Shown here piece after piece: positions 27,234-30,200 of a DNA stretch of 47,073 nucleotides. Position numbers and translations under genes: made by a program. Source of the stretch: an uncultured bacterium (GTDB lineage Bacteria; Patescibacteriota; Minisyncoccia; Phycocordibacterales; GWA1-40-21); NCBI GenBank assembly GCA_903831595.1, contig CAIKXY010000001.1, positions 1 to 47,073 of the forward strand, written 5' to 3'. Numbering within the stretch: position 1 is the stretch's first letter; the number at the start of each line of letters is the position of its first letter. The notes beneath the pieces are model-generated. The model saw only the letters and a list, made by a program, of their open reading frames with translations. It had not been told where the DNA came from and searched no databases.

Positions 27234-29015
27234 TTATCCTTTTCTTTCGTTTTTATCCCTCATCGACTTTGTTAAAAGTTTTTTTCTTAGTCTTACTGTC
27301 TTTGGTGTAATTTCTAGATACTCATCATTTTGCATTGTCTCTAATCCTTTCTCAATATCCATTCTCATTGGTGGGACAAGATACAAAGCTTCATCAGAAC
27401 CAGAAGCACGCATATTTGTAAGAGCTTTATTTTTTGTTGGGTTAACTTCCAAATCTTCACCGTTAAGCACATGTCCGATGACCATTCCTTCATATATTTC
27501 AACTGCTGGGTCAATGTAAAGCACACCTCTTTCTTGAAGATTCCAAAGTGAAAATGCCATTGTTTTTCCTGTGACCATCGAAGTCATTGAGCCAAATTCT
27601 TGTTTTTGTATTTCGCCGGCATAAGGTCTAAAATTTATAAATCTTGAACAAAGAATTCCTAAACCTTTTGTGTCCACAATAAATGCACCCCTGTATCCAA
27701 GAAGTCCACGGGTAGGAATTTCAAAAATCATCCTGACTTGGTTGTCGCGGATTTTCATATCTTTCATAATCCCTTTTCTTTTACCTAGTTTTTCAATAAT
27801 AGTTCCTTGGAATTCTTCTGGGACATCAACTGTGACTTCTTCATAAGGCTCCGACATTACGCCATCAATTTCTTTTACGATTGCGTGCGGCTGGGAAACT
27901 TGAAGTTCAAAACCTTCTCGTCTCATATTTTCTATCAAAATTGCAATGTGAAGCTCACCTCTGCCATAAACAGTTATTGGCTCGCTATTAAAATCTATTC
28001 TTAATCCAACGTTTACTTCAAGTTCTTTTTCAAGTCTTTCTCTTATTTGTCTTCCAGTAACAAATTTACCTTCGCGTCCTGCAAAAGGCGAATCGTTAAC
28101 AAGAAAATTCATAGAAATAGTTGGCTCATCAATATTGATAGCTGGAAGGGGATTTTGCTCTGCATTTTCACAAATTGTTTCTCCAATAAATGCATCAGAA
28201 ATACCGGCAATCATCGCAATATCTCCAGCCGTAGCTTCTTCTACCGCATCTTTTTGAATTCCCTTAAAAGTATAAAGTTTGGTGATTCTTGTGCTTCTTG
28301 TTTCGCCGTTTGGCATTTTTAGGAAAATAGTTTGGCCATCTTTTACTTTTCCATTATAAATTCTGACGATAGCAAGTCTGCCAAGAAAATTATCATAAGC
28401 AAGATTAAAAATCTGTGCTTCGAGTGGTTTTGTAATATCGTTTTTTGCAGGTGGTACTTTTTCAAGAATCATATCTAAAAGGGGAGTCAAATCTTTTTGC
28501 TCATCTTTTGGATCAAGCATTGCTACTCCTTTTCTTCCAACAGCATAAATAACAGGGAAGTTTAGCTGTTCATCATTTGCACCAAGTTCCATAAATAATT
28601 CTAAGACTTCTTCGTGTGCTTCTTCTGGTCTTGCTGCTGGTTTATCAATTTTATTTATAACAACGATTGGTTTTAGCCCAAGTTCTAGTGACTTTTTCAA
28701 AACAAATCTTGTCTGTGGCATAGGACCTTCTTGTGCATCTACGACAAGTAGCACTGTATCTATAGAACGCAAAACTCGCTCAACTTCAGAGCCAAAGTCT
28801 GCGTGACCAGGAGTATCAACGATATTTATTTTTGTTCCTTTATAAAAAATGGAAGTATTTTTTGCATAAATAGTAATACCTCTCTCTTGTTCGAGTTTAT
28901 TACTGTCCATACTGACGCCTTCTTCAACCATTCCTGTTTGTCTAAGAATTGAGTCTGTAAGACAGGTTTTTCCATGGTCAACGTGAGCTATAATTGCGAT
29001 ATTTCTAATTTCCAT
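27234..29015 (-). CDS. typA: Translational GTPase TypA/BipA
   Basis: NIAIIAHVDHGKT, ERGITI, DTPGHADF, GRGELH, PTRGL, NMRASG, LEITPK..RLRK. Confidence 0.97.
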   Translation of the reverse strand: MEIRNIAIIAHVDHGKTCLTDSILRQTGMVEEGVSMDSNKLEQERGITIYAKNTSIFYKGTKINIVDTPGHADFGSEVERVLRSIDTVLLVVDAQEGPMPQTRFVLKKSLELGLKPIVVINKIDKPAARPEEAHEEVLELFMELGANDEQLNFPVIYAVGRKGVAMLDPKDEQKDLTPLLDMILEKVPPAKNDITKPLEAQIFNLAYDNFLGRLAIVRIYNGKVKDGQTIFLKMPNGETRSTRITKLYTFKGIQKDAVEEATAGDIAMIAGISDAFIGETICENAEQNPLPAINIDEPTISMNFLVNDSPFAGREGKFVTGRQIRERLEKELEVNVGLRIDFNSEPITVYGRGELHIAILIENMRREGFELQVSQPHAIVKEIDGVMSEPYEEVTVDVPEEFQGTIIEKLGKRKGIMKDMKIRDNQVRMIFEIPTRGLLGYRGAFIVDTKGLGILCSRFINFRPYAGEIQKQEFGSMTSMVTGKTMAFSLWNLQERGVLYIDPAVEIYEGMVIGHVLNGEDLEVNPTKNKALTNMRASGSDEALYLVPPMRMDIEKGLETMQNDEYLEITPKTVRLRKKLLTKSMRDKNERKG

Positions 29016-29031
29016 AATTTTAAATTAAAAG

Positions 29032-29051
29032 GCCTGCCTGCGCAGGCAGGC
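29032..29051. repeat. Perfect 20-bp palindrome in the typA leader
   Basis: GCCTGCCTGC|GCAGGCAGGC, 16 nt upstream of the typA ATG. Confidence 0.9.
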
Positions 29052-29122
29052 GCCTAAGCACCTTGCTGAATATTTATACCAATTTTTTTACTAAATGTAA
29101 AGGATTTTATAATTATAAATGG

Positions 29123-29154
29123 AAAACCCCTTAGCTTTTTGAGCGAAGGGGTTT
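29123..29154 (-). terminator. Terminator of the large ncRNA candidate
   Basis: On minus AAACCCCTTCGC-tcaaaaa-GCTAAGGGGTTTT, immediately after the RNA closing stem. Confidence 0.75.
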
Positions 29155-29159
29155 GTTTT

Positions 29160-29552
29160 GGGGTAAGTCACCATCGAATTTGCCGCGTTGGAATGTTATC
29201 TTTCCCAATGTTGGACAGATTTTCCGTATGGCAGGTAGTGTCTCAATTAATTGATAATGAGCGGCTCAGTTCTACCGAAATAGAACTATCATAGCCTCCT
29301 ACCTACGCTTTGTGCCAAACGTCAATTCACATGGCCTATAAAGGGGAATTCAACCCTCTAAAAGCACAACCCTCAAACCTGCATACGACTAGCTGATGCC
29401 ACCCAAATTGGCTATCTCTAGTCTAAATGCAGAAGCCAAAAGGCTTAATGTCATGTTTCCACGGCTAGAAAGGCATATAATGCTCACCTCTAGACTATGG
29501 GAAACAAGCATGTTTGCAATTAGCGTTGTCTTCATTATAGTTTGACTACCCC
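29160..29552 (-). ncRNA. Unclassified structured RNA of about 390 nt containing a 23S rRNA L1-stalk-like module
   Basis: Promoter and terminator flank it; 5' GGGGTAGTCA pairs with 3' TGACTTACCCC; more than 10 nested stems with G-U pairs on minus; GC richer than its flanks; no credible ORF. Confidence 0.8.
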
Positions 29553-29558
29553 AAATAT

Positions 29559-29586
29559 ATTTTACATATAAATAGTAATTTGTCAA
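29559..29586 (-). promoter_or_regulatory. Sigma70-type promoter for the ncRNA
   Basis: TTGACA (29586-29581), 16-bp spacer, TAAAAT (29564-29559); the first G of the closing stem is 7 nt downstream. Confidence 0.75.
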
Positions 29587-29636
29587 CTATACATAGACTT
29601 TCTTAAAACGCAGTAACTTATTTAATAATATATTAC

Positions 29637-30200
29637 TTAATTCATTACTCCTTCAAGCACGCCAGCTGGTGTTACTTTCAAATATAAAGTTGCGCCTTGA
29701 GATGGTCGCGCAGTCATTGGCTCACCAGATTTTCTTTCCGCATAATTTACATAAAGTTCTTTTGCACTTGTATTTATTTGTGTTGTCTGTGGTGCAATTC
29801 TGTCACCAATAAAAAATGCATTTGTTGTTTTATAACCAGTTGAAGTTTTTAGTGCGACTACTACATAATAAAATATTCCACTACCACCCGTCTCTTGGCT
29901 GACAAGAAAAGCTTCATCTTGTAATCCATCGTCATTCAAATCTCCGTAAGATTCATTTCCAAAATATCTCGTAACTATTTTCGACGCCGATCCCACAGTC
30001 ACTGCTTTTTCTGATACTCCGTTTTTAAGTGTTACACTTTCTCCGTCAAGAATAAATGAGCTATTTTTACCATCAAAAGTATTTTGTGTTGTTATATTGC
30101 TTTTTGTTTGTAAATTATTGACTCCAGTATTTTTTATTATTGAATAGACAATAAAACCTAATAAAATAATAAGCAAAATAATTATTAATTTCTTTTTCAT
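29637..30200 (-). CDS. Membrane-anchored extracytoplasmic hypothetical protein
   Basis: MKKK plus hydrophobic anchor; GDLNDDG.QD and GGSGIFYY, IGDRIAPQ motifs. Confidence 0.75.
   Translation of the reverse strand: MKKKLIIILLIILLGFIVYSIIKNTGVNNLQTKSNITTQNTFDGKNSSFILDGESVTLKNGVSEKAVTVGSASKIVTRYFGNESYGDLNDDGLQDEAFLVSQETGGSGIFYYVVVALKTSTGYKTTNAFFIGDRIAPQTTQINTSAKELYVNYAERKSGEPMTARPSQGATLYLKVTPAGVLEGVMN

Follow-up and report, generated by a model that had tools for sequence, protein, structure and literature searches.

Stand-alone bacterial RNAs such as OLE, ROOL, GOLLD, and raiA represent families of hundreds to thousands of members, the structures of which are supported by covariation. Typical base-pairing sRNAs are several times smaller, and far less structured, than the RNA candidate described here, which is ~390 nt long and has ~139 predicted base pairs. 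The candidate lies upstream of typA in a stretch of 47,073 nucleotides that was analysed as a whole (hereafter the window), belonging to a 726-kb genome (G000; 15 contigs, 96% complete).

A preliminary description of the window had presented this locus as a large structured RNA class that a reduced genome had retained beside the gene of a ribosome-associated GTPase. According to the data reported here, the observation was largely correct and its interpretation is partly supported: the locus harbors a candidate structured RNA gene, and it does not represent a conserved class tied to typA. In the literature searched, including PMC8321541, neither such an RNA nor a typA-adjacent RNA is described. 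The explanation that we prefer, with moderate confidence, is that of a structured RNA gene that is young, confined to one species, transcribed on its own, and unrelated to typA.

Promoter, Closing Helix, and Terminator

The candidate transcription unit at 29118–29586 comprises the following elements:

29581–29586, minus strand: −35 hexamer TTGACA (promoter scan and sequence)
29559–29564, minus strand: −10 hexamer TAAAAT (promoter scan)
29160–29552, minus strand: predicted RNA core, 393 nt, 43.3% GC (fold and composition)
29544–29555, minus strand: 5′ strand of the closing helix, pairing with 29157–29169 (probability 0.90–0.99)
29157–29169, minus strand: 3′ strand of the closing helix (fold)
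29118–29154, minus strand: terminator-like hairpin (9 + 3 bp) with a U-rich tail (fold, probability 0.95–0.98)

The promoter TTGACA-16-TAAAAT (29586–29559, minus strand) is present as it had been described; it matches the consensus at 11 of 12 positions and is the top-scoring site between 28900 and 29800 in a consensus scan. Sites with at least 11 matches number 74 on both strands of the 726-kb genome, this one included; those with exactly 11 of 12 number 57, versus about 55 expected by chance according to our own genome-wide estimate from base composition. A GGGG run starts seven bases downstream of the promoter, on the strand (29555–29544) that forms the 5′ side of the closing helix. The transcript is predicted to start at the first G of this run, at about 29552, the +1 being deduced from the promoter spacing. 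The ends of the RNA pair as had been proposed, 29555–29544 with 29169–29157.

Immediately 3′ of the closing helix stands the hairpin 29154–29124, followed by TTTTCCATTT. The terminator previously placed at this point is thus confirmed as far as the hairpin and the U-run are concerned, but the hairpin was not called by the consensus terminator scan, whose sole call is the typA-leader hairpin (29051–29032). The segment 29118–29154 can also be read as a hairpin with a T-run on the plus strand, and it is the plus-strand image of the hairpin that weak Rfam matches align as the terminator of unrelated families. What carries information is not the 11/12 promoter match alone but the fact that it falls in register with the closing helix and the terminator. 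With its own promoter, a longest ORF of 65 aa, a strong fold, and a terminator-like hairpin, the unit agrees with the idea of a stand-alone, non-coding, and heavily structured gene.

Predicted Fold and Its Stability

The closing helix encloses three parts:

29361–29533, minus strand: 5′ domain, multi-branched (helix probabilities 0.74–1.0, outermost 0.41)
29339–29360, minus strand: central hairpin of 7 bp with an 8-nt loop (probability 0.95)
29170–29335, minus strand: 3′ domain, multi-branched, with uncertain outer helices (0.34–0.60)

In the minimum free energy (MFE) fold, about 70% of the bases of the core are paired. The inner hairpins of the 3′ domain are mostly firm (0.75–0.99, with one inner helix at 0.38), and one of them has a UUCG loop. 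Twelve of the fourteen stems that had been drawn by eye recur in the MFE fold, whereas CGTTTGGCA/TGCCATACG and TTGGGA/TTCCAA are superseded by alternative 3′-domain pairings. Reading the predicted fold, we found no GNRA tetraloop among the seven hairpin loops of the RNA body and recognised no tertiary motif; a k-turn in the hairpin at RNA nt 260–293 was considered and rejected, its register breaking the helix.

The minus strand (416 nt) has an MFE of −133.4 kcal/mol and a z-score of −3.93, with none of 100 dinucleotide shuffles being as stable; the values for the plus strand are −124.1 kcal/mol and −4.32. The minus-strand MFE is about 11 kcal/mol lower than that of the plus strand, despite the stronger z-score of the latter. 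It had been argued that G-U pairs favour the minus strand; this does not hold, with 11 such pairs on the minus strand versus 12 on the plus strand. Since neither G-U counts nor z-scores pick a strand, the strand assignment rests on the promoter and the terminator.

As a background, 400-nt windows taken from the genome itself (726 in number) were folded and their energy was regressed on GC content. The residual of the candidate is −2.43 sd, with 16 of the 726 windows equal or lower (top 2.2%), and the residuals of the RNase P RNA (−1.35 sd) and tmRNA (−0.8 sd) of the genome are weaker. Fold stability is good, then, and not exceptional against the genome's own background; the energy is suggestive and not decisive, because a protein-coding stretch (C2:43950–44450) folds far better still.

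This coding stretch (L089) lies within a 279-codon open frame with no internal stop and with a signal-peptide-like MKKLL... about 30 codons in. Its fold energies of −205.5 kcal/mol (plus) and −135.4 kcal/mol (minus) represent an unusually large strand asymmetry, and its residual is the second most extreme in the genome sample. The most extreme of the 726 belongs to an intergenic region (L088, G000:C3:10060–10330) with three long perfect hairpins (15–22 bp) and a 12/12 promoter.

The GC content of the core also stands out from the 31.8–34.9% of the contigs. Twenty ORF-free gaps were scanned, and those with a GC content of at least 0.40 mostly hold tRNA or rRNA; the long typA spacer of a neighbouring genus member is plain AT-rich sequence. 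Two further GC-rich, strongly folding stretches of 300–350 nt are found just downstream of tRNA genes (L073 and L074, G000:C2:16270–16600 and C2:25760–26020); one of them contains a 16-nt direct repeat whose copies are separated by about 230 nt, and their Rfam matches are tRNAs only.

Presence and Absence of the RNA Segment Upstream of typA

The RNA unit and the genes on its two sides are arranged as follows:

27234–29015, minus strand: typA/bipA (GTP_EFTU and BipA_C domains)
29016–29100, minus strand: typA promoter TTTACA-17-TATAAA and leader hairpin 29032–29051 (sequence, scan, and relative)
29096–29636, no strand assigned: 541-bp segment carrying promoter, RNA, and terminator (comparison with the relative and with metagenome contigs)
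29637–30200, minus strand: gene for a 187-aa protein with an N-terminal hydrophobic segment and without a Pfam family (domain search)

The neighbours in the window are housekeeping genes (LeuRS, a sigma-like protein, YceG, an RNase H-like protein, TruB, typA, and a polysaccharide flippase), and no mobile or defence genes were found near the RNA.

The nearest relative (G007, locus L014) shares 97% identity in typA and 79% in the 187-aa protein. There, ~27 nt separate the stop codon of the 187-aa gene from a typA promoter and leader that align with 29100–29016 of the window; the same two flanking genes lie ~107 nt apart, without the 541-bp block. A contig from a pond metagenome (run X3) joins 29095 to 29637 via 31 unrelated bases. 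Contigs of runs X2, X3, and X4, from two studies, contain the RNA with 0 differences. Because the contigs of these three further runs bridge both junctions, the RNA segment is not an assembly chimera; and because contigs exist with and without the block, the latter is real DNA, polymorphic between close lineages. By parsimony, it would represent an insertion or a replacement in this lineage. The 0 differences among the X2–X4 contigs imply that strain variation gives nothing to analyse for covariation.

The gene typA was found in 24 of the 25 other genomes of the genus, and the gene order upstream of it varies widely within the genus. Five loci with a typA upstream region carry a homologue of the 187-aa protein upstream, with spacers of ~90–130 nt. 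Probing the typA upstream regions (25 regions, blastn and nhmmer) did not retrieve any sequence resembling the RNA from the 24 other genomes, the window matching itself only. The proposed synteny with typA is therefore not seen at any of the 24 loci, and the suggestion that the RNA is kept next to typA in a reduced genome fails, since it is absent at this site from the closest relative and from the pond-metagenome contig.

In two genomes of the genus (G010 and G006, loci L016 and L017), the homologues of the 187-aa protein upstream of typA are 304 and 316 aa long and possess an extra, cysteine-containing C-terminal domain of ~120 aa, absent from the protein of the window.

Search for Homologues

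BLAST retrieved the RNA from none of the 25 other genomes of the genus, whereas the same method, in a positive control, retrieved RNase P RNA from 24 of them, with 94% identity in G007. Only short matches were obtained from wider sets: 25 and 27 nt among 40 relatives, one of ~30 nt among 400 genomes of the order, and one of 22 nt among 400 genomes of the phylum. Two short matches were rejected as chance: they lie within protein genes, and what they have in common does not go beyond the codons of a five-residue peptide; a tblastn search with a 149-aa protein revealed no wider similarity. Phage and plasmid collections gave no match. Within the genome itself, short-word BLAST found matches of 18 nt at most, and Tandem Repeats Finder reported a single 12-nt, two-copy repeat, outside the RNA.

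Moreover, 12 degenerate peptide seeds from the (presumably non-coding) 65-aa and 51-aa frames were used as fuzzy DNA probes on metagenome, genome (185,579 species), and viral collections. These seeded scans returned 378 and 444 pattern matches from metagenomes, 227 and 319 from genomes, and 26 and 26 from viruses, none of which was confirmed. Single-sequence covariance models were built for the inner 5′ domain (R1, 29374–29516) and the 3′ domain (R2, 29170–29335). R1 matched none of 150 relatives and none of 150 further genomes of the class; R2 matched 3 of 150 relatives at E-values of 0.04–0.1 per genome, which is the noise level for 150 genomes. Neither model detected a paralogue in the genome itself.

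The term "class" used in the preliminary description consequently does not apply to what is a single sequence, with no homologue by BLAST, seeded scans, or covariance models. As far as these searches reach, there are neither homologues nor covariation; since nothing searched yielded a homologue, neither covariation nor a sign of selection can be read from the sequence. The collections were sampled or seeded, so that more distant homologues may yet turn up.

A pseudogene origin was also considered and rejected: 10 proteins whose genes precede typA in relatives, among them the longer homologues (304 and 316 aa) of the 187-aa protein, were used as tblastn queries and retrieved nothing at E < 0.2.

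Search for Known RNA Families

At the gathering threshold, Rfam 15 detected one tRNA and nothing else in the whole window. A permissive scan of 28950–29750 with all 4227 Rfam 15 families (E ≤ 10) retrieved 12 weak matches, all within 28962–29162 (terminator and typA leader) and none in the RNA body, so that no known family matches the latter even at this threshold. The families tested include OLE, ROOL, GOLLD, raiA, HEARO, and other large ncRNAs, the five named ones being, as we take it, among the 4227. Riboswitch and T-box models gave no match in the Rfam scans.

The earlier exclusion of tmRNA, RNase P RNA, SRP RNA, 6S RNA, and introns was borne out by the lack of any Rfam model match and by ARAGORN, which found no tmRNA in the window. 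In particular, the candidate body is unmatched by the RNase P RNA models (RF00010/RF00011) at the gathering threshold and at E ≤ 10, and by that of tmRNA (RF00023); the genuine RNase P RNA (G000:C13:68250–68589, 112.3 bits) and tmRNA (G000:C5:5189–5597, 100.4 bits) are located on other contigs. The models of SRP RNA (RF00169/RF01854) and 6S RNA (RF00013) are unmatched both in the region and throughout the genome, and the predicted fold is multi-branched and not rod-like as in 6S RNA. Group I and group II introns gave no match in the full Rfam scan, and the element is intergenic with its own promoter. Since the genome lacks Ffh and FtsY, no SRP RNA is expected, and a hidden SRP RNA is therefore unlikely.

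The SRP targeting pathway as a whole was undetected in G000. Besides the two SRP RNA models, neither the Ffh M domain (PF02978) nor the SRP54-type GTPase domain (PF00448) was found, nor were ffh or ftsY by NCBIfam models, and RF00169 was matched in none of 26 genomes of the genus. Among 61 genomes from 25 families of the order, PF00448 yielded short N-terminal partial matches (model positions 3–83 of 196) in 9 genomes, and the controls gave matches in all 14 reference genomes. Unless a lack of sensitivity accounts for these negatives, a whole order would be without a near-universal machine; the parts of the literature searched report nothing on a missing SRP pathway in the order.

As a separate observation, a match to LOOT RNA (RF03000) was obtained at positions 370–493 of locus L086 (G000:C2:91269–91392), with 73.5 bits, well above the gathering score.

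Other Promoter–Terminator Units in the Genome

The architecture of promoter plus terminator recurs in the genome, because other unannotated units with a consensus promoter and a terminator (C4:78588–79230) share this layout. On the plus strand of locus L077 (G000:C4:78400–79400), consecutive units lie at approximately C4:78683–78860, 78862–79040, and 79044–79215; each has a TTGACA-type promoter (11–12 of 12) and a terminator hairpin, and none has an Rfam match at E ≤ 1. In the nearest relative, a match (79% identical) was obtained for the middle unit alone, and the remaining 24 genomes of the genus gave none. These units may represent fast-evolving genes for sRNAs or small proteins.

Alternative Explanations

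In principle, the following scenarios can be depicted besides that of a young RNA gene.

According to the main one, which we judge somewhat improbable, the 541-bp segment would be incidental or decaying foreign or rearranged DNA, with unselected signals and an unselected fold, maybe still transcribed. The status of a singleton without detected relatives, the presence/absence polymorphism, and the rearrangement-prone site, as judged from the differing gene order upstream of typA among genus members, are all consistent with it. So are exact 11/12 promoter matches, which are, by our estimate, about as common as base composition predicts, and background windows, coding ones included, which reach an equal or better fold energy (16/726). 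Against it stands the coincidence in register of a promoter, a closing helix, and a terminator, as does a GC content 10 points above that of the genome, since decaying DNA in an AT-rich reduced genome is expected to drift to AT. No protein-gene remnant was detected (tblastn, 10 proteins, E < 0.2), and the sole word common to another genome in the search of 400 genomes of the phylum is the 22-nt chance match. Streamlined genomes of 726 kb, moreover, seldom retain 0.5 kb of junk, which also counts against this scenario. On its side, two of three other sRNA-like units in the genome are without a match in the 25 other genomes of the genus, and the third is matched in 1 of them; since these promoter–terminator units are also barely conserved, a rapid turnover of intergenic units is suggested.

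It is rather unlikely that the candidate represents the first example of a hitherto unseen class of large structured RNAs with self-clamped ends, horizontally mobile among ultra-small (Patescibacteria-type) bacteria or their phages. Its acquisition would then be recent, and its relatives would be too rare or too divergent for sampled or seeded searches.

Slightly less probable still is a cis-acting element, that is, either a long structured 3′ UTR and terminator of the 187-aa gene (maybe also the source of a 3′-UTR-derived RNA) or an upstream leader or attenuator feeding typA. The 187-aa gene, the RNA unit, and typA are all on the same strand, and no terminator was called between the stop codon of the 187-aa gene (29637–29639) and the RNA promoter; read-through from this gene would therefore end at 29154–29118. 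Yet the RNA has its own strong promoter, and the homologue of the 187-aa protein in the nearest relative (79% identical) functions without the RNA. As for typA, its own promoter and the position of its leader hairpin are common to this genome and to the relative devoid of the RNA; since both species retain a separate promoter and leader for typA, there is no link of the RNA to this gene. A riboswitch, a T-box, or a typA leader was likewise rejected, the typA promoter being downstream of the RNA terminator and the element being absent at the 24 other typA loci of the genus, in agreement with the lack of riboswitch or T-box model matches.

The leader hairpin of typA itself (29051–29032) is GC-rich, is followed by a T-run, and lies ~16 nt before the start codon; in the nearest relative its place is taken by another hairpin. 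It may act as an attenuator or as a structure occluding the ribosome-binding region.

We consider it highly improbable that the unit encodes one or more small proteins, e.g., one of 48 codons that would begin at an ATG ~20 nt downstream of the predicted start and share the frame of the 65-aa ORF. The RNA region does contain open frames of 65, 51, and 49 aa, with no ORF above 65 aa, but frames of such length are expected by chance. The 65-aa ORF (29389–29586) starts inside the −35 box, and no suitably spaced ribosome-binding site was recognised on reading the sequence. Neither of the two longer frames has a credible homologue: protein databases gave no match for the 65-aa frame, and the 51-aa frame obtained two marginal, multi-stretch matches (E ~7e-4) among 1.84 billion proteins, treated as noise. 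More than half of the transcript would, in any case, stay non-coding.

Finally, a very divergent member of a known family (a second RNase P RNA or tmRNA, an SRP RNA, a 6S RNA, an intron, or an OLE-, ROOL-, GOLLD-, or raiA-type RNA) is extremely improbable, for although the size, the paired ends, and the multi-domain fold resemble those of stable RNAs and neither SRP RNA nor 6S RNA was found elsewhere in the genome, the body draws no Rfam match at E ≤ 10 even under permissive filters, the genome has its RNase P RNA and tmRNA at other loci, SRP RNA is not needed without Ffh and FtsY, and an essential RNA would occur in the sister species, where the candidate is absent.

A Possible Model

If the locus is a young, species-restricted RNA gene, as we favour, a sigma-70-type promoter would start a minus-strand transcript near 29552. 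The ends of its core (~393 nt) would be clamped in a 12-bp helix, enclosing the 5′ domain, the central hairpin, and the less certain 3′ domain, and transcription would stop at the hairpin and U-run (29154–29118). The 541-bp segment would have entered the short stretch that separates typA from the 187-aa membrane-protein gene, or wholly replaced it, presumably from outside and after the split of this lineage from its nearest sequenced relative. The RNA would most likely act in trans as a stable accessory RNA, outside typA control and outside the core translation apparatus.

If real, the gene would imply that even a symbiont-type genome of 0.7 Mb can gain and express a sizeable new structured RNA, and it would represent a lead to RNA biology in a phylum with almost no characterised ncRNAs. 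Its present value is that of a candidate single sequence and not of a discovered class, and the tie to typA and ribosome function that had been suggested is removed by this analysis.

Comparison with Known RNA Systems

The candidate is similar to OLE, ROOL, GOLLD, and raiA in being a stand-alone gene with a multi-domain fold of several hundred nucleotides, no adjacent protein partner, and a patchy occurrence. It differs from them in that it is a single sequence without an Rfam model match, with no GNRA loops in its predicted fold and no prophage or tRNA-cluster context; furthermore, it is shorter than OLE, ROOL, and GOLLD.

With RNase P RNA, tmRNA, 6S RNA, and SRP RNA it shares ends paired in a terminal helix and an own strong promoter, and its size is like that of the RNase P RNA and tmRNA of this genome (340–410 nt). 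None of the models of these housekeeping RNAs matched it, and their conservation is of another order, BLAST having found RNase P RNA in 24, and the candidate in 0, of the 25 other genomes of the genus.

Lastly, the candidate resembles the lineage-specific (orphan) sRNA genes of bacteria, with which it has in common the organization as an intergenic unit of promoter and intrinsic terminator and the occurrence in one species.
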